This document shows, piece by piece, positions 3,945 through 52,197 of a stretch of 64,000 bases of DNA. Numbering within the stretch: position 1 is the first letter of the stretch; the number at the start of each line of letters is the position of its first letter. Source of the stretch: Escherichia phage L27; the sequence record LC473039.1. One strand, written 5' to 3'. The notes beneath the pieces were generated by a model. That model worked only from the letters and a program-made list of their open reading frames with translations, had not been told where the DNA came from and searched no databases. The translations under genes and the position numbers were made by a program.

Positions 3945-5610
3945 TTATCGAATCTCTATACAATCCTTTCCCTTTCCTTTCCAGAATCTTCCCACTGATT
4001 CAATAGAATCTATCTCATACCTTAAAAAGTAATAACTCTATAGCTTACTCTATAGCCCCTTATCAAATCAACTTAAATATAAGCCCATAACCCGAAAGGG
4101 AAGGGCAACCATTTAATTGGTATTGTTACCAATCCCTAAACGCTCTATAAAGCTCTATAACAGCCTTATCAACCTAACTTAAGGGATTGCATTAACTCAC
4201 CCTTAAAAGCTCTTTACAGGGCTTTATAGAGGCTTAAAAGAATCTTATAAGGGTGTAAGCTTTACCATATCGTTAGTTCCTTGTGAATATCTATAAATGG
4301 CTATGAGATAGGACTCTATCGAATCCTCTTGTTAGTGTCTTAAAAGTATGTTATAGGGACTTAAAAGTTACTTCAAAGTTACGTGAAAGAGGCTATAAAG
4401 TTACGTAAATGCTAGCCCCCTTAACATTTTCTTAACAATTTCTTAACAATCCCTACATAGTTATACTTGTTAGCCCCTTGTTAAATCTCTGTTAAGACCA
4501 TGTAAAAGCCTTGTAAGAACCTTTGACATAGCCTTAAAAGCTCCTGTAAAGCCCTATAAAGAGCTATCCATACAGTTGAGGGGTAAATACTAGGGAGAGA
4601 CTAAAAAGAACCTATAAAGAGCCTATAGAGAGCTTTTAAAAGGTATGTTTAAGGAATCACTAAGAAAGGGAAGGGAACGATAAGAAAAGAGTAGTGACCA
4701 TGTTAACAGCTTGTTAAAAAGATTAAACACTTGTTAGGAACTTGTTAATTATCTTAACAAAATAACCCTTAAAAATTAACTTCTTAGACCTTGTTAGATA
4801 TCTGTTAAGCATCTGTAAAGACTATTCAGCAACTGTTAAGAAACTGTTACACCCCTGTTAGTTCTGTTAAGAATCTGTTAAGACCTTTGAAGAGTTGTTA
4901 AAAAGGTGTTAGAACTGTTAAGAGATTGTTAATGATATTTTAAGATTTTGCAAAGTACTTGTAAGGGAGCTGTTAAGGGCTACCAAGCAGATATACATCC
5001 TAATCAGATATTTTTCAGTTCCTTCAAAGACCCTAAAAAATGACTTGATAGTCCTATTTTATAAAAATTTTAAAATTCTGAATAATTACCTATACAGTCT
5101 TTCTAAAATACAGGTAGAAACAGGCTTATAAGATACCTTGTTAGTGCCGTGTTAGACCTTGTGAGATAAGGTCTGTAAAGATATTCCTGTTAAGTTTGTT
5201 AAAACAGTCTATATAGAGGCTTAGTATTTCCTAGTGAACACCTATAGAGGGTATCATAGCTGACATAATGGGTTACTGTTAAGTAACACAGATAACCTAG
5301 AGATTAAGAGGTGTATAGGAGCTTCTAAGAGGGTATAGAGAGATGGTTAAGGTGATTGTATAGGTTGTTAAGAAGGCTTGTTAGAAGAATGTTTAGAAGG
5401 CTTATTAAAGGGCTAGTTAGAAGGGTTATACAGGGGGCTATTAAGACCACTAGATAATTACTAAGATACTATATAGTACTATATAACTGTATATATATAG
5501 AGAGTAAGATTAAGAAGGTTGTTAAGAAGGATAGATATTTTATTCACATATGATGGTGACCCAGAGGTTGGGACAACCGATAAAATTTTATAAAAAATAT
5601 AAATTTCGTA
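3945..5610. repeat. ORF-free AT-rich region dense in short degenerate words ((c/t)tgtta(a/g), ctataaag, gttagaagg)
   Basis: no ORF of 60 aa or more in any frame over about 1.7 kb; lies between convergent transcription units. Confidence 0.5.
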
Positions 5611-5620
5611 AATTTTACTC

Positions 5621-5646
5621 AATAAAAAGCCCCCAATTAAGGAGGC
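5621..5646 (-). terminator. rho-independent terminator (minus strand)
   Basis: minus-strand hairpin gcctcc/gggggc followed by TTTTTATT. Confidence 0.6.
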
Positions 5647-5658
5647 TCTTAAGATATT

Positions 5659-6207
5659 TTAAATCAGGTTTTCTAAAACTGTTTTTAGTGATGACTTGGT
5701 TGTCTGATAAAAATGAGTAAACCTATTGTTGTTATCGAATATCTGCATCATAACAGCATCTCCCTTGATTGGGTACACTCGGATATCATAGTGAAACCCA
5801 TTAAAGACAGCAGAACCATTACAGAACACACTGAAATCATCCACTGAGATATACTCTTCATGCCCTGTGATTTTTATACAGACACCTTTACTCGGTCTCT
5901 TAGGGTTGGTATCTTCCATCACAGACATGCTCTGTCCACCAAGAGATACCATCGTGACCACTTTACGGTTCTTCTGTTTAAAGTACATTTTAACTTTCTG
6001 TAAAGTGTCTTCATAGAACGGATAAGACCTCTCTACAAAGATTCCTTCTAATGGCTCTTTACCATTTTCAACTTCTCTGTTATGTCGTACTGCAAAGATA
6101 ATTTGTTCGAACCAGTCAAGATTTTCTTCGGAGAGTGCTTCTCGAATATCACTCCAGTCAAGGACTAGGTAGTTACCTTCAACTTCTTTTAAGTTATCTT
6201 TTTCCAT
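5659..6207 (-). CDS. hypothetical protein (about 183 aa)
   Basis: ORF; ATG at 6207 chosen because the track start at 6252 is a TTG that overlaps the upstream gene. Confidence 0.5.
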   Translation of the reverse strand: MEKDNLKEVEGNYLVLDWSDIREALSEENLDWFEQIIFAVRHNREVENGKEPLEGIFVERSYPFYEDTLQKVKMYFKQKNRKVVTMVSLGGQSMSVMEDTNPKRPSKGVCIKITGHEEYISVDDFSVFCNGSAVFNGFHYDIRVYPIKGDAVMMQIFDNNNRFTHFYQTTKSSLKTVLENLI

Positions 6208-9889: not shown

Positions 9890-10354
9890 TTACTTTGGAT
9901 ATACGCTGTCAAGATAAATGTCAGCTTCCATTCTACGTCTGTTTTTCAGGCCGTTTGAAGTGACCTTCTTACCTTTGACTGTAACCTTGTTCCACCACTG
10001 CATAGCTTCTGCACAACCGACCTTATTACCATCGTTGTGGCGCTTGATAAATGTAGAGTCCTGCATAGCTGTGATGCCAATGTTGTATGTTTCACTTACC
10101 AGTGCATCAAACTCATTCTGAGAAGTTGGAACCTTGACGGCTTTGTTCACTGCTGCAACGAACTTCTCAACATCTGCGAGAAGATACTGTTCAGCTTGTT
10201 CAGCGGTAATCTTCATACCCATCTTAACAGGCTTCCCACCAATACGAATTGTCCCATACCCAATTGTGGGGATTCCAGCAGAATCTTCGTAAGCCTCTAG
10301 CTTAAGACCTTCAAAGAACTTAATAGCTTCTAAACCTTTTCTTGAGAGTTGCAT
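9890..10354 (-). CDS. endolysin, lysozyme (GH24, P22 gp19/T4 e-like)
   Basis: 154 aa; N-terminal motif EGLKLEAYEDSAGIPTIGYG matches the lysozyme catalytic Glu/Asp/Thr region as recalled. Confidence 0.85.
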   Translation of the reverse strand: MQLSRKGLEAIKFFEGLKLEAYEDSAGIPTIGYGTIRIGGKPVKMGMKITAEQAEQYLLADVEKFVAAVNKAVKVPTSQNEFDALVSETYNIGITAMQDSTFIKRHNDGNKVGCAEAMQWWNKVTVKGKKVTSNGLKNRRRMEADIYLDSVYPK

Positions 10355-12219: not shown

Positions 12220-12383
12220 AGATAATCCTCTTGTCTTCTGTAATTTTGAAAGAACAGGTACAGACCAATTTCAGAGGACGAATAGTAGATTAATTCTACC
12301 CTTTTTGATTCCTTACAGTGATTGGTATTCTTACCTTTCTTCGGTTTATTTGATTTTCTCATTAAGTCTCCTTTGTAGAACAA
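12201..12383 (-). CDS. hypothetical basic protein (60 aa)
   Basis: short ORF at head of minus-strand block. Confidence 0.35.
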   Translation of the reverse strand: MFYKGDLMRKSNKPKKGKNTNHCKESKRVELIYYSSSEIGLYLFFQNYRRQEDYLCVVPN

Positions 12384-12458
12384 GGCAGACCTACAGCTTT
12401 AAGTAAGATGGTACAGTAATCCATACAACAAGTCAAGAACTATTGCAAGTTAAAAAAG

Positions 12459-12502
12459 TTGTTGACAAAGCACTTGACAAGGTATAGGCTTATAAATACT
12501 TA
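12459..12502 (+). promoter_or_regulatory. divergent-region promoter motif with tandem TTGACA ('gttgacaaagcacttgacaaggtatagg')
   Basis: similar motif at 54403-54433 in the other divergent region; exact -10 uncertain. Confidence 0.4.
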
Positions 12503-12611
12503 GAAGATAACTTAAAAGGTTCCTCTAAAAAGGCTATTTAAACAGATATCTTTCTGGATATCTATCTTTTATCTTAAAAGCCTTTTAAGAGGTCTTATAA
12601 GAGGCATACCA

Positions 12612-12983
12612 ATGAAAAACAGAACAAACAAAGGCCAGTTTAAAAAAGGCCAGTCTGGAAACCCATCTGGAAGACCAAAAGGCTCTCGTAACAAAAGCTC
12701 ACTCGTAAAAGCTCAACTGACCATTGATAATTCTGCTGAGTTCGCTGCAAAGCTGTTTGAGGCGATTGTTACAAGGGACGCTGCTAAGCTTGCAGAGTTC
12801 GGTTTGACGACTGACGATGTAAACCTGAAGTCGATGATGGAAGCTGGTAAAACTATCATGACCCACTCAGCAGGTGAGATGAAAGCGATTGCAGCAGACA
12901 CTAAGAAGACCCCTGATAATGGTGGTCAACAACAGACAGATAACAAACCAACGTTCTCTGCTGTAGCGACTCTCAAAAAATAA
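12612..12983 (+). CDS. hypothetical basic protein (123 aa) with N-terminal KKGQSGNPSGRPKG motif
   Basis: ORF with RBS; first gene of operon with the vWA protein. Confidence 0.6.
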   Translation: MKNRTNKGQFKKGQSGNPSGRPKGSRNKSSLVKAQLTIDNSAEFAAKLFEAIVTRDAAKLAEFGLTTDDVNLKSMMEAGKTIMTHSAGEMKAIAADTKKTPDNGGQQQTDNKPTFSAVATLKK

Positions 12984-13063
12984 TTTTAAAAGGTGTTGAC
13001 AGACTCTACAAAGTTGCTCTAAAGTCTGTCACATCAAACAACAATGAGAGAAGAGAGTAAAAT

Positions 13064-14479
13064 ATGAGCGAGTTATTTAAACATGCGCACCTTCATGCAG
13101 GTCGAACTGAAAATGGTGCTGTAAACCATACTTCATCAATGTCTGCTCTGGTAGACTTCTACAAAGCCGCTGGCTCAAGCCGTAGCAATGTAGAAATCTT
13201 ACCAGACCTGTTCTACAAAGCTTTGCGTGAGGATGTTGATGTTGCAGTTCGTATTTTACTGCATATGCGAGATGTACGAGAAGGTATGGGTGAGCGTAAA
13301 GCTTTCCGAACTGTTTTACTTCAAGCGATTGAAGATAAGGTTTTAGAACCTACACAGGTTCTTCGCATTATGGATAAGATTGCAGAACTTGGTCGTTTTG
13401 ATGACTTCAAAATCTTCGTAGGTACTCGTTTCGAGACAGATGCCTTCAAACATTTAGAAGCAGCATTACTAGACCCTGCAACAGCAGGTTTAGCAGCTAA
13501 GTGGTTGCCACGAGTAAAACCACGCCACAAACAGTTTGTAAAACGTTTCTGTAAGTTTGCAAACTTAAGCGAGAAGGAGTATCGCACACTGCTATCTGCA
13601 CTGTCTGATACGGTTGAGCAAAAAATCTCTGCTAATGAGTTTGGTAAGATTGACTACAGCAAGATTCCTTCACTCGCTGCTGCACGTTACCAAAAGCTCT
13701 TTAACCGTAAAGATGGAGAGCGTTACAAAGCTTACATCGAATCATTATCAAAGGGTGAGGTTAAGATTAATGCTGGTGCTGTTTACCCATATGATGTGAT
13801 TAAATCTATTAAGTATGGTAATGCAGATGTTGCTAATGAGCAGTGGAAAGCACTTCCAAACTGGATGGCAGAAGGTGAAAACATCTTGTGTATGACTGAT
13901 GTTTCAAGCTCAATGTCTTGGGTGAATCTTGGTTCAATCACTGCCCTTGATATTGGTGTATCACTTGCCTTGTATGTAGCAGAACGCAATACAGGTTGCT
14001 TTAAAGATGAGTTAATGGTCTATTCAACAAACCCTCATTTCATTGAACTGAGTGGTGATTTACGAAACCGTCATCGTCAGGTAATGCGTCATGTTGAATA
14101 TGGTTCAACTAACTTACAAGCAGCTTTTGACCGTATTCTTGAGGTAGGTAAGAGAAACAACTTGACTCAGAAAGATATGCCAAGTAAGCTTATTATCTTC
14201 TCTGATATGGAGTTTAATCAGGTTGATGGTGCAAATGGTCGTACAAACTTTGAAGCAATTCAGAGTAAGTACAAAAAAGCTGGATACGAAATGCCACAAC
14301 TAGTATTCTGGTACTTAGCAAACCGTAATGGTACTTGCGAAGTATCTGTTAAGGATAATGGTGTAGCAATGGTATCAGGGTTCTCTCCAGCCACTTTAAA
14401 AGCTCTGCTTGGTGGTGAGAAGTTTGACCCAATCAGTGTAATGCTCAAAGCGGTAATGATTGACCGTTATATCTGGTAA
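13064..14479 (+). CDS. vWA-domain protein with MIDAS-like motif; candidate Ro60/TROVE-like (or DUF2828-like) RNA-binding protein (471 aa)
   Basis: DxSxS motif (DVSSSMS) about residue 280 followed by vWA-like pattern (IIFSDMEFN, VSGFSP); overall architecture resembles Ro60/Rsr as recalled, not searched. Confidence 0.5.
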   Translation: MSELFKHAHLHAGRTENGAVNHTSSMSALVDFYKAAGSSRSNVEILPDLFYKALREDVDVAVRILLHMRDVREGMGERKAFRTVLLQAIEDKVLEPTQVLRIMDKIAELGRFDDFKIFVGTRFETDAFKHLEAALLDPATAGLAAKWLPRVKPRHKQFVKRFCKFANLSEKEYRTLLSALSDTVEQKISANEFGKIDYSKIPSLAAARYQKLFNRKDGERYKAYIESLSKGEVKINAGAVYPYDVIKSIKYGNADVANEQWKALPNWMAEGENILCMTDVSSSMSWVNLGSITALDIGVSLALYVAERNTGCFKDELMVYSTNPHFIELSGDLRNRHRQVMRHVEYGSTNLQAAFDRILEVGKRNNLTQKDMPSKLIIFSDMEFNQVDGANGRTNFEAIQSKYKKAGYEMPQLVFWYLANRNGTCEVSVKDNGVAMVSGFSPATLKALLGGEKFDPISVMLKAVMIDRYIW

Positions 14480-14497
14480 AAAGTTTTAAAAAGGGTA

Positions 14498-14526
14498 TTG
14501 ACAATGTGTTTGATACCCTTTAATAT
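14498..14526 (+). promoter_or_regulatory. strong sigma70-like promoter (TTGACA-17-TAATAT) upstream of tRNA cluster
   Basis: consensus -35, 17-nt spacer, near-consensus -10. Confidence 0.7.
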
Positions 14527-14644
14527 GTTCTACATAGAAACGAAACGAGAGCTTTTCTAAGATACTGAAAAATATTTTAAAAAAGTTCTTGACAATCACT
14601 AAAAAATAATGTTAAAGTGGTTACATAGAGTTTGAAAAGTTTAT

Positions 14645-14721
14645 CTCTGTTTAGCTCAGCTTGGTAGAGCGTTCCGTTTGGGGCGGTAAGGCCGGAGGTT
14701 CAAGTCCTCCAACAGAGACCA
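14645..14721 (+). tRNA. tRNA-Pro (anticodon TGG)
   Basis: hand-folded cloverleaf; 7-bp acceptor ctctgtt/aacagag, T-loop ttcaagt, CCA encoded. Confidence 0.7.
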
Positions 14722-14728
14722 AATTAAT

Positions 14729-14806
14729 GTTCCAGTAGACAAAATGGTATAGTCACCACTCTTTCAAAGTGGATATTTGAGGGTTCAAATCCCTTCTGGA
14801 ACGCCA
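14729..14806 (+). tRNA. tRNA-Glu (anticodon TTC)
   Basis: acceptor gttccag/ctggaac, anticodon loop ctttcaa, CCA encoded. Confidence 0.7.
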
Positions 14807-14810
14807 GTTT

Positions 14811-14889
14811 TGACAGAAGACCAATTACAGCAAACTTAATCTTATTCATCTGAAGGTAAATCGGACAAAGAAGAGACTTGGTCTGGTCA
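14811..14889 (+). ncRNA. structured RNA-like element A (Y-RNA-like family)
   Basis: terminal helix tgac/gtca + AGAA/UG internal loop + GACCAA/TTGGTC helix; conserved 'tacagcaa' box. Confidence 0.5.
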
Positions 14890-14898
14890 TTAAGAATT

Positions 14899-14975
14899 GC
14901 GGGTATAGAGAAAGGGCGTCTCACATGTCTCATTAGCATGGTATCGGCAGGTTCGACTCCTGCACCCGCCTCCAA
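14899..14975 (+). tRNA. tRNA-Met-like (anticodon CAT), 1:72 unpaired
   Basis: anticodon loop ctcatta, T-arm gcagg/ttcgact/cctgc, CCA encoded; first acceptor pair mismatched. Confidence 0.6.
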
Positions 14976-14978
14976 ATT

Positions 14979-15049
14979 TACAGAAGACCGTTTACAGCAA
15001 AATTGAATGAAATTTTTAGCGGAAAAATTGAAAGATACGGTCTGGTAAT
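14979..15049 (+). ncRNA. structured RNA-like element B (Y-RNA-like family)
   Basis: terminal helix ttac/gtaa + AGAA/UG loop + GACCGT/ACGGTC helix. Confidence 0.5.
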
Positions 15050-15058
15050 ACTAAACAT

Positions 15059-15132
15059 GGTTAGGAAGCACATAAGGTATGTGCGGTCGCCTGTTAAGCG
15101 AATGGCACAGGGTTCGAATCCCTGACTAACCG
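15059..15132 (+). tRNA. tRNA-Asn (anticodon GTT)
   Basis: T-arm caggg/ttcgaat/ccctg, anticodon loop ctgttaa; CCA not encoded. Confidence 0.65.
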
Positions 15133-15144
15133 CAAAATTTAAAT

Positions 15145-15232
15145 GTGTCGTTATCCCGTAGATGGTAGCGGTGGGGACTGTAAATCCCTTGTCATTGAGA
15201 CTCGGTAGGTTCGACTCCTACACGGCACACCA
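15145..15232 (+). tRNA. tRNA-Tyr (anticodon GTA), long variable arm
   Basis: anticodon stem-loop gggga/ctgtaaa/tccct, T-arm gtagg/ttcgact/cctac, acceptor gtgtcgt/acggcac. Confidence 0.65.
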
Positions 15233-15254
15233 ACACTTAGCGAGATACTTAGTT

Positions 15255-15683
15255 ATGAGAGATGAAGTATACAAATCACAACTTGGTATGAGTTTGGGAA
15301 CTGCACAAAACAGACTAGTAAAAGATTTGCTATTCGATTTTATATGTAAGACAAATCAAAATAGATGTTTTCAGTGCGGAAAAGAAATGACTAGGGATGA
15401 TTTCTCTATCGAGCATAAGATTCCGTGGAGACATAGTGAGAATGCAAAAGAGCTTTTCTTTTCACTAGATAATATTTCTTATAGTCATCTTAAATGTAAC
15501 ATGAAAGCAGCAAGACCAGCACAGATAAGTGAAAGAAAACATAAAACAATTAAACACGGAACTGCGTATAGTTATTTTAAAGGCTGTAGATGCGATGAGT
15601 GTAGGTTGGCTAAGAATGCTGAGAGTAGAAGAAACTATAGTCCAGAAAGACGTAGGAAGAAGTATCTAAGAAATGGCACATGA
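15255..15683 (+). CDS. HNH homing endonuclease (142 aa)
   Basis: CFQCG...SIEHKIPW...N...H..CN HNH motif; basic C-terminus; embedded in tRNA cluster. Confidence 0.75.
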   Translation: MRDEVYKSQLGMSLGTAQNRLVKDLLFDFICKTNQNRCFQCGKEMTRDDFSIEHKIPWRHSENAKELFFSLDNISYSHLKCNMKAARPAQISERKHKTIKHGTAYSYFKGCRCDECRLAKNAESRRNYSPERRRKKYLRNGT

Positions 15684-15687
15684 ATTT

Positions 15688-15763
15688 GGGGTATTAGTTT
15701 AGACGGGTAAAATACGGGATTGTCTCTCCTGAGCCGCGAGTTCGATTCTCGCATACCTCGCCA
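15688..15763 (+). tRNA. tRNA-Asp (anticodon GTC)
   Basis: acceptor ggggtat/atacctc, anticodon loop ttgtctc, CCA encoded. Confidence 0.75.
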
Positions 15764-15821
15764 ATTTTGAGAGGGCTATTTAGCCCCTCCCTTAAAGGGT
15801 TCTTACGAGTATCTTTTAAAG

Positions 15822-15903
15822 GAGCAGAAGACCAAATACAGCAAGAACGTATGAAAATTTCAAGCCAATTTAATTTTGAAAAATTTAAAACTTGGTCTGG
15901 CTC
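15822..15903 (+). ncRNA. structured RNA-like element C (Y-RNA-like family)
   Basis: terminal helix gagc/gctc + AGAA/UG loop + GACCAA/TTGGTC helix. Confidence 0.5.
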
Positions 15904-15910
15904 AACAAAT

Positions 15911-16047
15911 TTACAGAAGACCGTTTACAGCAAAACTTAAACAATCTATTTCTCGGTAAAGAAAAGGCGAAGGTTCGATTCCTTCACTCGGCAGATGTCG
16001 AGTTGGTGTAATGGTAGCACTTAAGATGATAAACAACGGTCTGGTAA
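15911..16047 (+). ncRNA. structured RNA-like element D with circularly permuted tRNA-like module (candidate YrlA-type Y RNA)
   Basis: same terminal helices as A-C; interior has T-arm gaagg/ttcgatt/ccttc, then acceptor-3' actcggc, 4-nt linker, acceptor-5' gtcgagt (7-bp complement) and D-arm gtgt/aatggta/gcac. Confidence 0.5.
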
Positions 16048-16189
16048 TTATCTTTGTAGATAAGTTATTAAGCTTACCTGTGAGTATGCGACCACAAAGG
16101 GTGAAAGGGTAAATTCTAGATTTAAACCCAACAAGGCACATCGCTACAGACCTTAAGCAAGTCTGGGTAGCTTATCTACAAAGATAATT
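16046..16189 (+). ncRNA. structured element F bounded by a 19-bp perfect inverted repeat
   Basis: aattatctttgtagataag (16046-16064) is the exact reverse complement of 16171-16189; about 106-nt interior with internal hairpins. Confidence 0.45.
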
Positions 16190-16193
16190 TAAT

Positions 16194-16269
16194 GGAAGTG
16201 TAGCAGAATGGTGATGCGGTAGACTTTTAATCTGACAGGCGATGGGTTCGAATCCCTCCACTTCTACCA
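16194..16269 (+). tRNA. tRNA-Lys (anticodon TTT), atypical T-stem
   Basis: acceptor ggaagtg/cacttct, anticodon loop cttttaa; T-stem has A.C and U.U mismatches. Confidence 0.55.
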
Positions 16270-16273
16270 AAAT

Positions 16274-16350
16274 GGTTCAGTCGCAGATAAGGTAATGCAA
16301 GGGTCTCATAAGCCCTATGAATGTGGGTTCGATTCCCATCTGAACCTCCA
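16274..16350 (+). tRNA. tRNA-Met or Ile2 (anticodon CAT)
   Basis: acceptor ggttcag/ctgaacc perfect, anticodon loop ctcataa, CCA encoded. Confidence 0.7.
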
Positions 16351-16367
16351 ATTTATAGGTGATACTT

Positions 16368-16853
16368 ATGATTTGTGCCAACAAAGATTGCAGAAATGAA
16401 GCCGTTAAAGGTGGAAAATTTTGCTCACGCTCTTGTTCTGCAAAAGTGAACAACAAGAAACACCCAAAGAGAAGTCAGGAAGGCTCTTGCCATTCATGCG
16501 GAAAGGTAACGCCAAAAGCGAGAAAATACTGTGACGAATGTATTGCAGGTGGAGTCATGAAAAAACATAAGACCCATCATGAAAAAAGCAAAGCCAAATC
16601 ACTGCACGTTAAAAAGTCTCGTGACAGACTGAAGAAGGCTTTAGTTGATTACAAGGGTGGTTGTTGTTCAATTTGTGGTTACAATAGGTGCATAAAGGCT
16701 CTAGAGTTTCACCACTTAGACCCTAAGACAAAAGACTTCACAGTAAGTAAAAAACACTACTCACTGGCTACAATGCAGTCTGAAGTTGATAAGTGTGTCT
16801 TGCTTTGTGCAAATTGCCACAGAGAAGTACACGAAGGGGTAACAATGCTGTGA
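16368..16853 (+). CDS. HNH homing endonuclease (161 aa), Cys-rich N-terminus
   Basis: CSICGYN...LEFHHLDP...CANCHREVH HNH motif; stop codon lies inside the first bases of tRNA-Ile. Confidence 0.75.
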   Translation: MICANKDCRNEAVKGGKFCSRSCSAKVNNKKHPKRSQEGSCHSCGKVTPKARKYCDECIAGGVMKKHKTHHEKSKAKSLHVKKSRDRLKKALVDYKGGCCSICGYNRCIKALEFHHLDPKTKDFTVSKKHYSLATMQSEVDKCVLLCANCHREVHEGVTML

Positions 16854-16922
16854 AAGCACATATGGATGTGCATTCGGCTGATAACCGAAAGGCAGAAGGT
16901 TCAAATCCTTCTCACAGTACCA
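16847..16922 (+). tRNA. tRNA-Ile (anticodon GAT)
   Basis: clean cloverleaf: D-stem gcac/gtgc, anticodon stem ttcgg/ccgaa, T-stem gaagg/ccttc, CCA encoded. Confidence 0.8.
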
Positions 16923-16937
16923 ATTTCAATAAAGTTG

Positions 16938-16966
16938 TTGACATTGAGATGTGACTACTTTATAGT
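16938..16966 (+). promoter_or_regulatory. sigma70-like promoter (TTGACA-17-TATAGT) inside tRNA cluster
   Basis: consensus -35 and good -10 with 17-nt spacer. Confidence 0.65.
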
Positions 16967-17170
16967 AACCTTAGTTTTCGTTGCGTAGCGTCTATTTTGC
17001 AAATTTAAAATAAATGCAAACGACAATGTTTTTCTGGCAGTAGCTTGATAGGCTAAACACCAGTGAGGTCTTCCAATCCCTCATCAAAGAATTTGGCGTA
17101 CTCGCCCACGGTATGATTAATAAGGTGGGCATCTTTAAGGGCTTTCTAAGAGAGTCTTTAAAGATAATTA

Positions 17171-17252
17171 CGGGGCGTATCTCAGCGGTCTTCTAAACCG
17201 CCGTTAACCGAGTAAGTGGAGTATGCGGGTTCGAGTCCTGCCGCCTCGACCA
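17171..17252 (+). tRNA. aberrant tRNA-like gene (possible anticodon TCT), D-arm missing or unrecognisable
   Basis: good T-arm and 7-bp acceptor (cggggcg/cgcctcg) with CCA; stem-loop gcggt/cttctaa/accgc; only about 7 nt where the D-arm should be. Confidence 0.4.
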
Positions 17253-17395
17253 ATTTAGTTAGCAGATTACTTAGACGACCTAAGCGGGTCTTCCTGTAGG
17301 GAGGTGGTCTGTATCTCATGTTTTCCAGAACATGTAAATAATCTGAGAAGGGGCTTTACAGTGTTGAGATAATACGGTAAGCTTCGAATTATAGT

Positions 17396-17478
17396 ATGGG
17401 ACGATGTTAAGACTCTAAGGCATGAGCAACGGCTTCCAACACCGTTTCAAAGGGGTTCAACTCCTCCGTCCCATGCCA
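17396..17478 (+). tRNA. tRNA-Trp-like (anticodon CCA) with about 8-nt insertion before D-stem
   Basis: perfect 7-bp acceptor atgggac/gtcccat, anticodon loop ttccaac, T-loop ttcaact, CCA encoded; expanded D region. Confidence 0.45.
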
Positions 17479-17491
17479 AAGTCTTATTAGG

Positions 17492-17581
17492 GGTAGGTAG
17501 CGGCTAATGGTAGCCAAACAGTCTTGAAAACTGTTGCCACTGTAGAGATACGGTGAGGGTTCGACTCCTTTACTTACCGCC
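17492..17581 (+). tRNA. tRNA-Ser (anticodon TGA), long variable arm
   Basis: anticodon stem acagt/actgt perfect, loop cttgaaa, 20-nt variable arm. Confidence 0.75.
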
Positions 17582-17735
17582 TAATAAGATTTTACACCGT
17601 CCATGCTTGCTCGCATTTTCGGTTTATCCCTCGTGTATTGTCGTACACTGATAAAGCACCTAGTAGGTGTCACGGAGAAGAGATAATATCAAGCTCTCCA
17701 AAGGTTCTAGTCACCGGATTAAACAAGACTATGCA

Positions 17736-17758
17736 AAGACCAAATTAGGTCTTTTTAG
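17736..17758 (+). terminator. terminator-like hairpin with T-run inside tRNA cluster
   Basis: aagacc-aaatta-ggtctt followed by TTTTT. Confidence 0.45.
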
Positions 17759-17835
17759 AGGGCTTCTAAGGTTATTACAGCTTGTTGTGGAACCTTGTTG
17801 CTTAGGTTCTTAGAAGTTCTCTAAAAAGATTTAAT

Positions 17836-17913
17836 GGGAGATTGACGGTAATTGGTAAACCTATCTCGCTTAGAACGAGATGTTTGAGGGTTCGAATCCC
17901 TTGTCTCCTACCA
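17836..17913 (+). tRNA. tRNA with Leu-type anticodon TAG but short variable arm
   Basis: anticodon stem tctcg/cgaga, loop cttagaa, T-arm gaggg/ttcgaat/ccctt, CCA encoded. Confidence 0.55.
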
Positions 17914-17920
17914 AATTAAT

Positions 17921-17996
17921 GCAGGTGTAGCAAAATGGTTATGCGGCTGACTCTTAATCAGTAAGACGATGGGTTCAATTCCCTCCACCTGTACCA
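17921..17996 (+). tRNA. tRNA-Lys (anticodon CTT), atypical T-stem
   Basis: anticodon stem gctga/tcagt, loop ctcttaa; same unusual T-stem as the TTT Lys tRNA. Confidence 0.55.
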
Positions 17997-18002
17997 GACA
18001 TT

Positions 18003-18078
18003 GGGGATGTAGTTTACATGGTTAAAACATAAGTTTTGCAAACTTAAGTACAGGGTTCAATTCCCTGCTTCTCCACCA
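18003..18078 (+). tRNA. tRNA-Ala (anticodon TGC)
   Basis: G3.U70 wobble pair present; D-stem gttt/aaac, anticodon stem taagt/actta perfect. Confidence 0.8.
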
Positions 18079-18084
18079 ATTAGT

Positions 18085-18159
18085 GCATCCATAGTTTAAA
18101 CGGGAAAATTGCAGTCTTCCAAACTGAGGTTGAGGGTTCGATTCCCTCTGGATGCTCCA
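18085..18159 (+). tRNA. tRNA-Gly (anticodon TCC)
   Basis: perfect acceptor gcatcca/tggatgc, T-arm gaggg/ttcgatt/ccctc. Confidence 0.75.
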
Positions 18160-18165
18160 AATAAA

Positions 18166-18242
18166 GCTGCTTTCGTATAATTGGCTATTACACATCCCTT
18201 GTAAGGATGGAAATGCAGGTTCGAGTCCTGTGAGCAGCACCA
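18166..18242 (+). tRNA. tRNA-Thr (anticodon TGT)
   Basis: anticodon stem catcc/ggatg perfect, loop cttgtaa, CCA encoded. Confidence 0.75.
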
Positions 18243-18245
18243 ATT

Positions 18246-18333
18246 CAGAGGTCAAGTGAAAGACCGCTGGTGTCAACTGAAGACCGTAACAAATTCCACG
18301 GAGTTGAGTTAGCGGCACAACTTCAGACCTCTT
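18246..18333 (+). ncRNA. structured RNA-like element E (truncated family member with nested helices)
   Basis: outer helix agaggtc/gacctct; inner mini-element 18275-18307 has caac/gttg + ccgt/acgg helices and 'gaagaccgt' box. Confidence 0.4.
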
Positions 18334-18337
18334 TCAC

Positions 18338-18412
18338 ACTCGCTTAGTTTATATGGTAAAACATCACCCTTACAAGATGAAGAAAAAGGTTCAAGTCCTT
18401 TAGTGAGTACCA
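18338..18412 (+). tRNA. tRNA-Val (anticodon TAC)
   Basis: D-stem gttt/aaac, anticodon loop cttacaa, T-arm aaagg/ttcaagt/ccttt. Confidence 0.7.
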
Positions 18413-18413
18413 T

Positions 18414-18491
18414 GTTCCAGTATCCCAATTGGCAGAGGATGCAAGCTCAAACCTTGTATTAGTGACGGTTCGAATCCGTCTTGGAACACCA
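18414..18491 (+). tRNA. tRNA with Leu-type anticodon CAA but short variable arm
   Basis: anticodon stem gcaag/cttgt, loop ctcaaac, T-arm gacgg/ttcgaat/ccgtc perfect. Confidence 0.55.
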
Positions 18492-18510
18492 ATTTTAAGA
18501 GGCTATTTAG

Positions 18511-19068
18511 ATGAGATATTTGAAGTATGCTTCATGGATTTTCCTAGCTTTACTAGAGCCATTTGCAGCAACCCTAGCAGTCATCTTAGCACCTTTCGTA
18601 GTCCCATTCTACAGTGAGAAGAAAGGGCATCTACCTTTTGGATTCAGATGGATGGAGACCTATGACAACCCGATTGATGGTGATGAAGGCCACGTTAAAA
18701 GATGGGCTAAGATTAGAAAGATTGGTAAGCTGGGTGTCTACATGCAGAGAGTTGGGTGGCTCTGGAGAAACAAAGCTTATAACTTCTCTTACCATGTATT
18801 AGGAAGAGATGTAAAAGATGTTACTAAGTGGAAAGGTAATATCAACGTAAGTTCTAACCCTGAAGATAATCAAACAGGTTATCTCCTAATGTGGAACAGA
18901 AATGCTTGGGGTTTATTTGCTTTTATCCCATCAATTAAAGTCTTTGGTAAACAGTTTTACTGGAGAATTTATATTGGATGGAAACTAAAAAGTGTTGTCC
19001 CAGAAGAAAGAGCATTCTCAAGGGAAAGAGTTATGTTGGCATTCTTTATTCATCCACTGAGAAAGTAA
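18511..19068 (+). CDS. hypothetical membrane protein (185 aa) inside tRNA cluster
   Basis: N-terminal hydrophobic segment (WIFLALLEPFAATLAVILAPFVVPF); ORF between tRNA genes. Confidence 0.55.
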   Translation: MRYLKYASWIFLALLEPFAATLAVILAPFVVPFYSEKKGHLPFGFRWMETYDNPIDGDEGHVKRWAKIRKIGKLGVYMQRVGWLWRNKAYNFSYHVLGRDVKDVTKWKGNINVSSNPEDNQTGYLLMWNRNAWGLFAFIPSIKVFGKQFYWRIYIGWKLKSVVPEERAFSRERVMLAFFIHPLRK

Positions 19069-19076
19069 AGATTTAA

Positions 19077-19152
19077 AGGGGATTAGTTTACAAGGTTAAA
19101 ACCTCGGTCTTTGAAATCGAAGAAGTTGGTTCAATTCCAACATCCCCCGCCA
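19077..19152 (+). tRNA. tRNA-Gln (anticodon TTG), A1.C72 mismatch
   Basis: anticodon loop ctttgaa, T-arm gttgg/ttcaatt/ccaac perfect. Confidence 0.65.
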
Positions 19153-19154
19153 AT

Positions 19155-19233
19155 GCTCCATTACTCCAATTGGCAGAGAGGCCAGACTTAAAATCTGTGT
19201 TATGTATCGGTTCGAATCCGATATGGAGTACCA
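19155..19233 (+). tRNA. tRNA with Leu-type anticodon TAA but short variable arm
   Basis: anticodon loop cttaaaa, T-arm atcgg/ttcgaat/ccgat perfect. Confidence 0.55.
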
Positions 19234-19238
19234 AATTT

Positions 19239-19314
19239 AGCGGTATAGCATAACTGGCAATGCAGCAGTCTCTGAAGCTGTCCTATTAAGGTTCAAATCC
19301 TTATGCCGCTGCCA
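19239..19314 (+). tRNA. tRNA-Gln (anticodon CTG)
   Basis: anticodon stem gcagt/gctgt (two G.U), loop ctctgaa, T-arm taagg/ttcaaat/cctta. Confidence 0.7.
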
Positions 19315-19345
19315 CTTCTAAGGGTTCTTACGAGAGTCCTTAAAT

Positions 19346-19421
19346 GTGGCCTTATCATAAATGGTAATGACCCATGCTGTGAACATGGTCTATACGGGTT
19401 CAAATCCCGTAGGTCACCCCA
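19346..19421 (+). tRNA. tRNA-His (anticodon GTG)
   Basis: D-stem tcat/atga, anticodon stem ccatg/catgg perfect, T-arm acggg/ttcaaat/cccgt perfect. Confidence 0.8.
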
Positions 19422-19426
19422 ATTTA

Positions 19427-19502
19427 TAGTCCAAGTAGCTTATATGGTAAAGCGCGTGTCTGAAAAACATGAGAAGAGGGTTCAAATCCCACTGGACTAC
19501 CA
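19427..19502 (+). tRNA. tRNA-Phe (anticodon GAA), boundaries approximate
   Basis: D-stem gctt/aagc, anticodon loop ctgaaaa; acceptor tagtcca/tggacta. Confidence 0.6.
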
Positions 19503-19518
19503 ATTTCAAAGGTGCTTA

Positions 19519-20253
19519 ATGAAAGAGATGACAGAACAAGGTAAGGAGATTTTTAATCTCTTAAAAACCGGTAAAGGGTTTTCTAACCCACTTATTACTG
19601 GTGCAGCAGTTCTCGGTGGAACCGTAGCTGCCTCTACATCACTTGTAAACTCTATTAGTTCTGTAACAGACCCTACAATGAAGGATAAACTTGTTGCTGC
19701 TGGACTTACAACAGTCCTTCTAAACAGCTTTACAACAAGCCTTACAAGCACTACAGCAACTACTAAGACCCTAACAGACTACGGTCAAAAGTCTATTGAT
19801 GAGTTTTCATCACGTATGCAGGTAGCAAAGGGATACTCCAATGTTATGGGTGCAGCAGGAGAACAAGTTGGTTGTACACCATTCAGTGGTATTATGGGTG
19901 TTGCTACAGAGTATGGTCAAAAAGCTATTGACACGATTAACAGTACACTGGATAGTGTTAATGATGTGTTAAGTGACTTACAAGATGCTATTGATAAGGG
20001 TCTTGATACTGTTTCTGATTTAGCTAACCAAGCTGTAAGTAAAATTAATGAAGGTATTTCAAAGATTACAGCTTATGCAGATGAAGTTGTGCAGATGATT
20101 GAAGAAGAAGCTGCACTTATTGCAGAGTACCTTAAAACGAATATCAATGGGTTCTTAGCAGGTATCTTACCAGACTGGTTTGATGATGCTTGCAAAACTG
20201 GTGTAATTGACACTATTGCAACACCAGAAATGAAGAACGCATTACAGAAATAA
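19519..20253 (+). CDS. hypothetical Ser/Thr-rich protein (about 245 aa) inside tRNA cluster
   Basis: ORF from ATG at 19519; the upstream part of the track ORF overlaps tRNA genes and is discounted. Confidence 0.5.
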   Translation: MKEMTEQGKEIFNLLKTGKGFSNPLITGAAVLGGTVAASTSLVNSISSVTDPTMKDKLVAAGLTTVLLNSFTTSLTSTTATTKTLTDYGQKSIDEFSSRMQVAKGYSNVMGAAGEQVGCTPFSGIMGVATEYGQKAIDTINSTLDSVNDVLSDLQDAIDKGLDTVSDLANQAVSKINEGISKITAYADEVVQMIEEEAALIAEYLKTNINGFLAGILPDWFDDACKTGVIDTIATPEMKNALQK

Positions 20254-20254
20254 T

Positions 20255-20347
20255 GGAAGATTAACCCTAAAAGGTAAGGGAGCAGTTTGCTAAACTGCCA
20301 GTAGCTGAGAAATCGGTGTACCAGTTCAAGTCTGGTATCTTCCTCCA
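20255..20347 (+). tRNA. tRNA-Ser (anticodon GCT), long variable arm
   Basis: perfect acceptor ggaagat/atcttcc, anticodon stem gcagt/actgc, 21-nt variable arm. Confidence 0.8.
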
Positions 20348-20351
20348 ATTT

Positions 20352-20427
20352 GAATCCGTGACAGAAATGGCTATGTGCCTGTCTGCAAAACAGGTTTATA
20401 AGGGTTCGAGTCCCTTCGGATTCTCCA
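20352..20427 (+). tRNA. tRNA-Cys (anticodon GCA)
   Basis: perfect acceptor gaatccg/cggattc, anticodon stem cctgt/acagg. Confidence 0.8.
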
Positions 20428-20465
20428 AGTTATTTTACTCTCTCTCAATTAAAAATAATAATAAT

Positions 20466-20526
20466 GCCCTGCTATCAGTATTCTTCCTTTCGCTACCGAA
20501 GAGTATTTTTAGACAGGGCTTTTTTA
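20466..20526 (+). terminator. rho-independent terminator at end of tRNA operon
   Basis: long hairpin gccctg...cagggc followed by TTTTTTT. Confidence 0.7.
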
Positions 20527-20590
20527 CAGAGTTATACTTTATAAGAAGCCTTATACAGTATGTCTCTGACGTACATTGTGGTTTCTCCTT

Positions 20591-20614
20591 GACGGTCTCT
20601 GTACCGTCTTTTTT
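20591..20614 (+). terminator. rho-independent terminator
   Basis: gacggt-ctctgt-accgtc followed by TTTTTT. Confidence 0.7.
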
Positions 20615-20650
20615 AAGGGGAAACATGATTAACTATTTGGAGAAAACATA

Positions 20651-20851
20651 ATGAGCGAGACCGTTTATAAAGAACTTTATGAAGCTAATAAGAAGCTAGA
20701 ATTTATGCAGAATACTATCATGGCAATTGCAGACAGATTGTCTGTAGCAACAGGTATTGATATTAAAGAAGCATCTATGGATGCACTTCTTGATGCTGTT
20801 GATGCAAAGTTCGAAGTTAAGAAAGAAGAGACTGCTACAGACTCTGAATAA
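20651..20851 (+). CDS. hypothetical protein (66 aa); possible small terminase subunit by position only
   Basis: small ORF immediately upstream of large terminase. Confidence 0.4.
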   Translation: MSETVYKELYEANKKLEFMQNTIMAIADRLSVATGIDIKEASMDALLDAVDAKFEVKKEETATDSE

Positions 20852-20872
20852 TTCTATTTGCGGAGGCGCTTA

Positions 20873-22474
20873 ATGGACTTAAATGCTGTTAAGCAGAAGC
20901 GAGTGGAAGATGTTAGGAAAGTCCTAGCTGGAGAGTTGGGGCTTTCTGATGAAGTAAAAGAAATTATCAAATCATTCGGTAAAGACCCCTCTAAATTCCT
21001 TCCAACTCAAATTCTGACTTTATTAAGATACACACCAGACCAAGTTAGACTTATCTTCAAATTGATGACTGATAAGAACTATGTAGCCCCTCAGCCGGGT
21101 TCTCAAGAGGTCTTTTTAAATACTAATGCTGACTTGGTTCTCTATGGTGGTGCTGCTGGTGCTGGTAAAACTGCTGCATTGTTAATGGACTCTTTAAGAT
21201 TTATTGAAGACCCTAACTATAATGCTGTATATTTCCGTCGAAATACAACACAGTTACAAGGTGGTTTATGGCCTGCTGCAAAGAAACTGTTTGGTAAGTT
21301 TGGTGGGATTCCTCACGAGCAGAAAATGACTATCACATTCCCTTCTGGGGCAACTATCAAGTTTACCTACCTAGAACTTGAAAAGCACGCTGAAGGTCAT
21401 CAGGGTATTGAATACTCAGCTATTTACTTTGACGAAGGTACACACTTCTCTGCTTCACAGATTTCATACCTACAGACTCGTCTGCGTTCTGGTGCTGAAG
21501 GCGACTCATACATGAAGATTTCCATGAACCCAGACAGAGACCACTTTATTTATGATTGGGTAGAGCCATTCTTAGATGAAGAAGGTTACCCAGACCCTGA
21601 GAAGTGTGGTCGTATCCGTTGGTATGTTATGAATGATGGTGTGATGGTTTCTGATTGGGAGAGAGACAAGATTCTTGAAATGTTCCCTCTTGAGATTCCT
21701 CAAACATACACCTTCATCTCTGGTACGATTGATGATAACCCAATTCTTGACTTCTTAGAGCCAAAGTATCGCGGTAAGCTTGAAAACAACACTCCTGTAA
21801 ACGTTGCAAGACTTCGTTTCGGTAACTGGAAGGCTCGTGCAGAAGGTTCAAACTACTGGCAAAGACAATGGTGTGAGATTGTTGATTCACTCCCAGAAGA
21901 TGTATTCGATGTTAGAGCATGGGACTTAGCAGCAACTTTACCATCTGAGATTAACCCTAATCCAGACTGGACAGCAGGTGTTAAGATGGGTAAATCTAAA
22001 AAAGACGGTTGCTATTATATCATTGATGTAGTAAGATTTAGAGATAGACCCTCTGGAGTCGAAACACAAATTAATTTGACTGCTGAAAGTGACGGTAAGC
22101 GAACTGGTATTTTTATCCCTCAAGACCCAGGCGCTGCTGGTAAATCCTACGCAACATCCCTCATCAGGAAACTTGCCGAGAAAGGTTATCGCGCAAGAGC
22201 TAAACCAACAAATAAAGATAAAGTTACCCGCTTTGCGGGATTTTCTGCTGCTTCTGAAGCTGGACTTGTAAAAGTCTTGAGAGGTAGTTGGAATGAAGCT
22301 TACTTCCAAGAGCTTGAAGGCTTTTGTGGTGATGGCAAAACTAAAGATGACCAAGTGGATGCTACCAGTGATGCTTTCAACAGTCTTAACGAAGTTAAAT
22401 TATTCAAGCCACCATCAATGGGTGCTCACACAGACTTAGTGAGAGGAAACCCATATGAGGGGCTTAGACGTTGA
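20873..22474 (+). CDS. terminase large subunit
   Basis: Walker A (GGAAGAGKT) near N-terminus, C-terminal nuclease-like region; ATG at 20873 after GGAGG RBS. Confidence 0.85.
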   Translation: MDLNAVKQKRVEDVRKVLAGELGLSDEVKEIIKSFGKDPSKFLPTQILTLLRYTPDQVRLIFKLMTDKNYVAPQPGSQEVFLNTNADLVLYGGAAGAGKTAALLMDSLRFIEDPNYNAVYFRRNTTQLQGGLWPAAKKLFGKFGGIPHEQKMTITFPSGATIKFTYLELEKHAEGHQGIEYSAIYFDEGTHFSASQISYLQTRLRSGAEGDSYMKISMNPDRDHFIYDWVEPFLDEEGYPDPEKCGRIRWYVMNDGVMVSDWERDKILEMFPLEIPQTYTFISGTIDDNPILDFLEPKYRGKLENNTPVNVARLRFGNWKARAEGSNYWQRQWCEIVDSLPEDVFDVRAWDLAATLPSEINPNPDWTAGVKMGKSKKDGCYYIIDVVRFRDRPSGVETQINLTAESDGKRTGIFIPQDPGAAGKSYATSLIRKLAEKGYRARAKPTNKDKVTRFAGFSAASEAGLVKVLRGSWNEAYFQELEGFCGDGKTKDDQVDATSDAFNSLNEVKLFKPPSMGAHTDLVRGNPYEGLRR

Positions 22475-51929: not shown

Positions 51930-52197
51930 CATCTGGTCAATACACTCGCAAGGTGTACCAGTTCTCTTATGAACTTCTCCGCATTTCTACGGAGTGTCGG
52001 ACTATATCACGTAGTAGTAATACTACCGTTGCACTTGGGAATGGTCATTAGCTTACCACCCTACTCTACTCAGTTCATACATTAAGTACGCTTTTCGATA
52101 GTCTCTGAACGTTCCTCTTAAGAGGCTTCGCTGCTGATTACCATATCTTTACAGACTTAGGCTTCCAGCAATTCACAACGTTTTACATGCGCCACTG
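51930..52197 (-). mobile_element. group I intron (268 nt, ORF-less) in DNA polymerase gene
   Basis: conserved P (tgctggaagc), Q (aatcagcag), R (gttcagagactatc), S (gatatagtcc) elements in correct order; P1 with U.G at 5' splice site; terminal G before exon 2. Confidence 0.8.

Follow-up and report, generated by a model that had tools for sequence, protein, structure and literature searches.

The stretch of DNA analysed here, termed the window, comprises 64,000 nucleotides (nt) of Escherichia phage L27 (sequence record LC473039.1) and holds a gene for a Ro60-like protein followed, on the same strand, by four candidate Y-like RNA elements. Particles of Ro60 and Y RNA are conserved from bacteria to humans, and human Ro60 is a major autoantigen, although their function is still poorly defined. 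The phage versions of Ro60 studied so far all belong to the canonical TROVE lineage.

The gene occupies positions 13064-14479 (+) and runs from ATG to TAA, encoding 471 amino acids (aa) with a helical ring domain and a vWA domain that carries a metal ion-dependent adhesion site (MIDAS). As an earlier sequence-only reading of this DNA had described, the open reading frame (ORF) contains the MIDAS motif DVSSSMS, which we locate in the sequence at residues 279-285 (D279-S285; nt 13898-13918, +). The gene precedes the start of a tRNA cluster (14645-20427, +) in which ARAGORN counts 24 tRNAs and in which the Y-like RNAs are embedded. The first tRNA begins at 14645, 166 nt past the stop codon of the gene, and the first Y-like element at 14811, 332 nt past it, in agreement with the earlier estimate of about 330 bp. 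This region shares 98% identity with Felix O1-like phages, among them Salmonella phages BPS17L1 and UAB_Phi87, and the same stretch is present in 250 of 252 matching phage records.

The predicted Ro60-like protein and its family

Of the two Pfam models that the sequence-only reading had pointed to, TROVE and DUF2828, only the second matched the protein (100.7 bits against a cut-off of 29, E = 1e-28), together with DUF7788 (148.9 bits against a cut-off of 27.1, E = 2e-43). Both DUF families are matched by 51/51 relatives in a family alignment covering 40-89% identity, and nine of these 51 also match Pfam vWA_Ro60 weakly. Throughout this alignment the MIDAS positions D279, S281, S283, T349 and D381 are invariant, and the MIDAS consensus of the family, DVSGSM, aligns with an identical DVSGSM in canonical Ro60. 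PHROG 850 labels the protein “RNA-binding protein”, and relatives are found in GenBank under “vWFA protein”, “RNA-binding protein” or “hypothetical protein”.

Searches of PDB chains by sequence were uninformative, as the single sequence retrieved nothing relevant and the profile only a non-significant match to a Ro60 vWA domain (E = 0.57), so a comparison of folds was needed. The AlphaFold2 model, built from the 51-sequence alignment (predicted local distance difference test, pLDDT, 90.1; predicted template modelling score, pTM, 0.89), places helices at residues 28-263 in a closed HEAT-like repeat ring, followed by a C-terminal alpha/beta vWA fold, which is the Ro60-type arrangement. When this model was compared with the PDB by Foldseek, the best 11 matches were all Ro60 relatives (509-555 columns, E = 4e-8 to 2e-6), namely Xenopus and human Ro60, Deinococcus Rsr and the Ro60 of Thermus phage phiLo, and the next-best matches were isolated vWA domains with E above 4e-3. 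The helical stretch ahead of a vWA-like segment, and the Ro60-like architecture that the sequence-only reading had proposed from it, are thus borne out by the predicted structure. At the level of sequence, hhalign aligned the family profile with 28 canonical TROVE-type Ro60s over 205 columns (probability 90.9%, E = 1.1e-6), an alignment that takes in the last helices of the ring (AVYPYDV opposite RVHPINV) and the entire vWA domain. DVSGSM is the same on both sides, and VSGF is conserved. By its predicted architecture, then, the protein is a Ro60, and by profile comparison its C-terminal half is demonstrably homologous to canonical Ro60. We regard it as a divergent member of the Ro60 superfamily, within a DUF2828/DUF7788 lineage that is distinct from the canonical TROVE lineage.

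Homologues of the protein were found by tblastn in 709 phage records, and the hosts of these phages include Escherichia, Salmonella, Vibrio, Campylobacter, Listeria, Staphylococcus, Enterococcus, Bacillus and Mycobacterium. The DUF2828/DUF7788 family is described in Pfam as eukaryotic too. A full-text literature search for “DUF2828” returned incidental mentions only, in plant and tardigrade papers.

The closest studied orthologue is gp130 of Bas63 (Escherichia phage JohannRWettstein), which is 98% identical, likewise 471 aa long and located, as here, between a DUF5681 gene and tRNA-Pro. In the 2024 PhageMaP preprint (PMC11482910), gp130 was noted to resemble Ro60 structurally; its deletion cripples Bas63 on a host with the Ppl defence gene, complementation brings growth back, and gp130 alone, either plasmid-borne or inserted into the T7 genome, rescues T7 on the Ppl host. 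This orthologue has already been called Ro60-like, so the interpretation of the protein, though correct, is not new, and annotators of actinobacteriophages already label family members “Ro-like RNA binding protein”. The authors of the preprint also guessed that some of the tRNA genes near gp130 are Y RNAs (PMC11482910). However, the RNAs were not identified there, and the candidates that we describe are four unannotated spacers rather than annotated tRNAs, recognised by a helix with an adjacent UACAGCAA that is spread across the family. In Bas63 these elements lie partly under small minus-strand ORFs, bas63_0137 and bas63_0138 (locus L006:20749-20901 and 20913-21023), and in UAB_Phi87 the minus-strand “hypothetical protein” ORFs Phi87_09 and Phi87_08 (L001:9491-9667 and 10058-10315) cover them as well; all of these ORFs are probably annotation artefacts. 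While the identity of the protein has been published for the orthologue, the class of RNA partner, its signature and its breadth seem undescribed in the literature that we searched. That said, 22 phages with YrlA are listed by Chen et al. (2014; PMC4201824), and some DUF2828-type phages may be among them.

Y-like RNA elements in the window and in distant phages

The four elements, A to D, share a common fold consisting of a 4-bp outer stem, an AGA/G internal loop, a stem of 7-8 bp (AGACCRN/NYGGUCU) and a single-stranded UACAGCAA. They lie 0.33-1.6 kb downstream of the gene on its strand, A to C being about 70-80 nt and D about 137 nt long. Element A (14811-14889, +), in the gap between tRNA-Glu and tRNA-Met, was located by repeat and pattern searches and by folding (model R1, E = 1.6e-5), and is composed of the outer stem UGAC/GUCA, the AGA/G internal loop and the stem AGACCAA/UUGGUCU, followed by UUACAGCAA. 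Element B (14978-15048, +), found by pattern search and folding in the gap between tRNA-Met and tRNA-Asn (R1, E = 3e-9), has UUAC/GUAA as the outer stem and AGACCGU/ACGGUCU as the inner one, again with the AGA/G loop and UUACAGCAA. Element C (15822-15903, +), supported by pattern search, folding and conservation, lies between tRNA-Asp and tRNA-Lys and combines GAGC/GCUC, the AGA/G loop and AGACCAA/UUGGUCU with AUACAGCAA. The outer stems vary among the copies with complementarity kept. The pattern CAGAAGACCNNNTACAGCAA has four matches in the window, and since none of 100 shuffled sequences reaches four (mean 0.31), the four repeated elements are not due to chance.

Element D (15911-16047, +), also between tRNA-Asp and tRNA-Lys, has the same closing helix and UUACAGCAA (fold z-score -2.05) and encloses a V stem-loop, a perfect T arm (15969-15985), an acceptor-like stem-loop of 7 bp (15986-16003) and a D arm (16006-16020), which amounts to a tRNA-like domain permuted to V, T, acceptor-like, D. 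This is the composition of bacterial YrlA, in which V, T arm, acceptor-like stem-loop and D arm likewise lie inside a helix in which the 5′ and 3′ ends pair (PMC4201824), and YrlB, a shorter companion RNA without tRNA-like domain, has its counterpart in elements A to C. In Rfam 15, searched at both thresholds over the window and 13 related loci, the elements were matched by tRNA fragments only, the sole match in element D being its T-arm fragment to tRNA; Rfam may hold no YrlA model.

Elements A to D occur at matching positions in the genomes of Felixounavirus, Mooglevirus and Suspvirus. In relatives, the outer stem of element B shows a compensatory change from UUAC/GUAA to UUGC/GCAA, and compensatory changes run throughout the acceptor-like stem of element D in eight orthologues. 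When the hand-drawn structure of element D with its 27 modelled pairs was laid over these eight sequences, 216 of 216 cells held standard pairs, as opposed to 37-51% when the 3′ partners were slid by 1-3 columns as a control. We also aligned 14 D-type sequences that include more distant phages, adding YrlA-like RNAs of Klebsiella phage FBKp34, a metagenomic virus and mycobacteriophage LeBron. In this alignment RNAalifold predicts 21 pairs, 11 of them with compensatory double changes, and the changes across distant phages fall in the closing and acceptor-like helices. The motif site reads U(A/U)CAGCAA in 14/14 sequences, with CAGCAA invariant.

The linkage of gene and RNA extends well beyond the Felix-like phages. 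Our distant set consists of 65 metagenomic viral loci whose protein is 39-46% identical to that of the window. An unbiased k-mer count covered 1 kb around the gene on its strand, with the opposite strand and the far flanks as background. Among 8-mers TACAGCAA ranked first in enrichment, with 55 occurrences where 2.2 were expected. A descriptor demanding a helix of 7 bp or more, stopping 2-3 nt ahead of CAGCA and closed 20-200 nt downstream, gave 64 matches near the gene on the same strand (0.48 per kb), compared with eight on the opposite strand (0.06 per kb), 0.10 per kb in the far flanks and 7.6 in shuffles. These matches are found in 43 of the 65 loci and represent 60 distinct sequences with 44 distinct stems. 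Ten of the matches have a T-loop, and the consensus of the set reads (U)AGG-NNNN-UU(A/U)CAGCAA(A)C ... NNNN-CCU(G). When trained on D elements of Ounavirinae (Felix-like phages) alone, a covariance model recovers elements B and A of the window and matches distant loci over its full length, with 34 of 35 matches on the strand of the gene, including loci L084 (E = 4e-10) and L031 (8e-10), FBKp34 (2e-8), Cronobacter phage S13 (9e-5) and LeBron (1e-3). A tRNA or tmRNA (transfer-messenger RNA) lies within 4 kb in only 18 of 60 distant loci, the other 42 having none, so the constant neighbour of the gene is the Y-like RNA and not a tRNA cluster. The same count weakens the case for the tRNA cluster itself as the partner. 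We also considered UACAGCAA as a promoter element and rejected this, since it shows strand specificity with respect to the gene, has covarying helices beside it, lies within tRNA-shaped scaffolds and is common to phages whose hosts use different promoter types.

The motif tracks the lineage of the protein rather than the host. Canonical TROVE-type phage Ro60 loci, namely those of Bxz1 gp220 and Streptomyces phage Jada gp106, carry RNAs of the YrlA type in which GGCCGA or GGGUCGGA adjoins the closing helix, and CAGCAA was not found at these two loci. LeBron infects the same host as Bxz1, yet it has a DUF2828-type protein and CAGCAA elements: in cluster L mycobacteriophages such as this one, the protein (LeBron gp53, 31% identity) belongs to the DUF2828/DUF7788 family, and in LeBron three helix-plus-CAGCAA elements, one of them YrlA-like, lie downstream. 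Such lineage-specific motifs fit the prediction of co-evolution between protein and RNA ligand. The label “Ro-like RNA binding protein” therefore hides two lineages, as the Bxz1-type and Streptomyces phage proteins carry canonical TROVE and vWA_Ro60, unlike the LeBron type.

Two phages of the comparison contain overlong genes of 113-121 nt annotated as tRNA-Asp, tRNA-Ser or tRNA-OTHER (FBKp34, L008:9003-9116; Cronobacter S13, L011:5896-6016 and 6026-6138). Their acceptor stem, D arm and T arm are normal, and a 7-bp hairpin followed by U(A/U)(A/U)CAGCA replaces the anticodon arm. Topologically, these genes correspond to YrlA-like RNAs without the permutation, with the ends at the acceptor stem and the motif helix closed by a loop.

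Other copies of the motif lie close to, or within, the protein gene. In KVP40-like Vibrio phages (L029, L030) and in L031, L034 and L036, a helix with UACAGCAA or the bare motif stands right ahead of the DUF2828 gene's Shine-Dalgarno sequence, which suggests autoregulation or processing from the leader. Within the coding region of the window, TACAGCAA occurs at 13655-13662, over codons Y-S-K of a conserved IDYSK segment, and it also occurs in 15 of the 65 distant homologues; this may be due to chance in codon choice or mark a site where the protein binds its own mRNA.

In five metagenomic contigs, L033 (~5860-6090), L037 (~5480-5710), L040, L042 and L044, a conserved element of about 230 nt directly follows a 60-nt Y-like RNA. 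It starts with GGAUAGGUACAGCAAAAAGUAC and includes UAGACGC, a 7-mer enriched 9-fold near the gene, has no Rfam match and may be a larger structured RNA.

A putative ribonucleoprotein particle and its rivals

The explanation that we consider likely is that the protein, as a Ro60-superfamily ring protein, assembles with the neighbouring Y-like RNAs A to C and the YrlA-like RNA D. Behind it stand the fold, the C-terminal sequence homology, the linkage of gene and RNA, the conserved motif and the covarying base pairs, all observed here, whereas the physical binding of RNA, the processing route and the downstream target are inferred. The three Y-like RNAs and the YrlA-like RNA would be made from the strand of the gene as part of an early tRNA operon, and would probably be freed from the precursor by tRNA-processing enzymes cutting the flanking tRNAs, which could provide the release sites for A and B. 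The features recognised by the protein would be the closing helix, the AGA/G internal loop and the single-stranded UACAGCAA beside them. Together they would correspond to the bulged helix, carrying GGUCCGA or CGAA, to which canonical Ro60 binds by its outer rim, while its central cavity takes single-stranded RNA ends. The part that varies, a loop in A to C or the tRNA mimic in D, would be left free to recruit a second factor. By analogy with Rsr, Y RNA and PNPase and with Ro60, Yrl RNA and PNPase of Thermus phage phiLo, the particle would most likely redirect or restrain host RNA decay or tRNA-directed enzymes during infection.

The nearest known systems share much of this layout. Bacterial Ro60 (Rsr) with YrlA/YrlB and Yrn1 (Chen et al., 2014; PMC4201824) also has a ring and vWA protein whose RNA genes lie on its strand and no more than 4 kb away. 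It differs in that the YrlA motif GNCGAA(N0-1)G near the 5′ end, where Ro60 is presumed to make contact, is absent here, the motif by the helix being UACAGCAA, and in that the gene here is a phage gene in a tRNA operon and not part of an rsr-rtcBA operon. The Ro60 of Thermus phage phiLo with its Yrl1/Yrl2 RNAs (PMC12135203; PDB 9KOP, 9L5Y) has a TROVE domain according to its PDB entry and RNAs with CGAA, and it is 15-16% identical to our protein; a tRNA-like domain in its Yrl RNAs goes unmentioned in the main text of PMC12135203.

Several results weigh against a particle of this kind. Unlike bacterial Rsr, the protein does not match Pfam TROVE (PF05731) at E up to 1, nor do its 51 relatives at E up to 10, whereas Bxz1 gp220 and Jada gp106 do (E = 9e-50 and 1.5e-36). 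In the hhalign comparison with canonical Ro60, the N-terminal 217 residues are left unaligned, and for these two reasons the N-terminal half is Ro60-like by predicted structure only. On the side of the RNA, the thermodynamic z-scores of the short elements A to C are weak (-0.6 to -1.6), and a search of the literature for Felixounavirus transcriptome data gave nothing usable. Under the strict descriptor 22 of the 65 distant loci have no element, and the enrichment counts overstate the number of independent events because the loci are phylogenetically related. Lastly, the anti-Ppl activity needs no phage Y-like RNAs, given that gp130 alone rescues T7.

Given this last point, the protein may act by itself or with host RNA, which leads to the first of the rivals, in which the protein acts alone as a protein-binding inhibitor whose vWA/MIDAS domain grips an acidic residue of a partner such as Ppl, and the RNAs are unrelated to its function. 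Besides the sufficiency of gp130 against Ppl, which was demonstrated for the 98%-identical Bas63 orthologue, such an inhibitor would agree with the intact and invariant MIDAS site and with the use of vWA/MIDAS domains as protein-binding modules in midasin, NorD and integrins, and these domains are also the next-best structural matches. The MIDAS, however, is no argument against RNA binding since canonical Ro60 keeps it too, and a solitary inhibitor leaves unexplained both the Ro60 fold of the whole protein and the covarying RNA motif that phages of Proteobacteria, Campylobacterota and Actinobacteria keep beside the gene and on its strand. We therefore judge it unlikely.

We hold a second rival to be improbable to much the same degree, namely that the motif is mainly a cis-acting operator through which the protein binds its own mRNA leader and autoregulates translation, with the free copies as decoys or secondary sites. 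The element or bare motif directly before the ribosome-binding site in KVP40-like and other distant phages makes autoregulation a further possibility, and the copies of TACAGCAA inside the coding region, here and in 15/65 distant genes, would point the same way. In this phage, however, the leader of the gene has no such element, and all four copies lie downstream, among tRNAs and behind separate promoter-like sites. An operator gives no role to the tRNA-like domain of element D, and it still needs the protein to bind the motif, hence it overlaps with the particle.

That the elements are by-products of the tRNA cluster (decayed tRNAs, processing spacers, or punctuation for RNase P or RNase E) with no dedicated protein partner is very unlikely, for although they sit between tRNAs, D has T and D arms and two phages carry the motif within otherwise complete, overlong tRNA-shaped genes, the element is present in 43 of 65 distant loci although 42 of 60 have no tRNA within 4 kb, it is conserved with compensatory changes and not decaying, and the permuted V-T-acceptor-D order inside a new helix is an architecture shared with YrlA and not that of a broken tRNA.

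Returning to the particle of protein and Y-like RNA, a wider reading may be offered tentatively, one for which our doubts slightly outweigh our confidence. DUF2828/DUF7788 would constitute a second large Ro60 lineage, spread over more than 700 phage genomes with hosts from at least three bacterial phyla and having a code of its own, in which the helix with UACAGCAA replaces the CGAA-type motif. Its partner RNAs would have arisen from tRNAs by circular permutation, with unpermuted intermediates persisting as the overlong “tRNA” genes of FBKp34 and S13, where helix and motif would stand in for the anticodon arm, and the particle would serve phages as a general tool against RNA- or tRNA-directed host defence. 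If the interpretation given in this analysis is right, a phage lineage much commoner than the one studied so far, filed under “DUF2828”, “vWFA protein” or “hypothetical protein”, would also be Ro60, with a recognisable class of RNA partners that is now missed or mislabelled as small ORFs or odd tRNAs. It would give the anti-Ppl phenotype of Bas63 gp130 a concrete molecular hypothesis, offer a natural experiment in protein-RNA co-evolution, with two motifs and two lineages sometimes in phages of one host, and supply a plausible evolutionary path from tRNA to Y RNA.

Neighbouring genes and minor observations

Upstream of the Ro60-like gene lies a gene of 123 aa (12612-12983, +) that matches Pfam DUF5681 (E = 7e-14), and the sequence-only reading had included it in a possible Ro60/Y-RNA module. 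The ORF exists, but by tblastn it accompanies the Ro-like gene in Ounavirinae loci only, being absent from all 65 metagenomic and from five other distant phage loci, and we reject this companion as a component of the module on the ground that it is restricted to Felix-like loci (0/70 distant loci).

A sigma-70-like promoter match (TTGACA, 18 nt, TAAAGT; 12996-13025, +) precedes the Ro60-like gene, and two more (14498-14526 and 14589-14618, +) lie ahead of the cluster of tRNAs and Y-like RNAs, each agreeing with the consensus at 10 of 12 positions. Across 12300-20900 promoter-like and terminator-like sites are no more frequent than in shuffles, so this picture of transcription units consists of consensus matches only. 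A perfect 9-bp inverted repeat (TGACAGACT ... AGTCTGTCA; 12997-13031) overlaps the TTGACA promoter-like site upstream of the gene and could be an operator.

Within the tRNA cluster there are two ORFs for HNH-type endonucleases, at 15162-15683 (173 aa, +), overlapping the 3′ part of tRNA-Tyr, and at 16359-16853 (164 aa, +). They look like insertions of mobile homing endonucleases because the corresponding tRNAs of Bas63 are only 5 nt and 1 nt apart. One further tRNA at 17171-17249 (+), missed by ARAGORN, is matched by Rfam with 31.7 bits, and relatives annotate a tRNA-Arg (TCT) there between the same neighbours, tRNA-Ile and tRNA-Ser. Weak, sub-threshold tmRNA-like matches occur at 16933-17169. 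In two metagenomic contigs, phage tmRNA genes (L067:1806-2210 and L083:7710-8199) lie at most 2.3 kb from the DUF2828 gene on the same strand. Elsewhere in the window, a group I intron (Rfam RF00028) is found at 51977-52209 (-) with 64.9 bits against a gathering score of 50.

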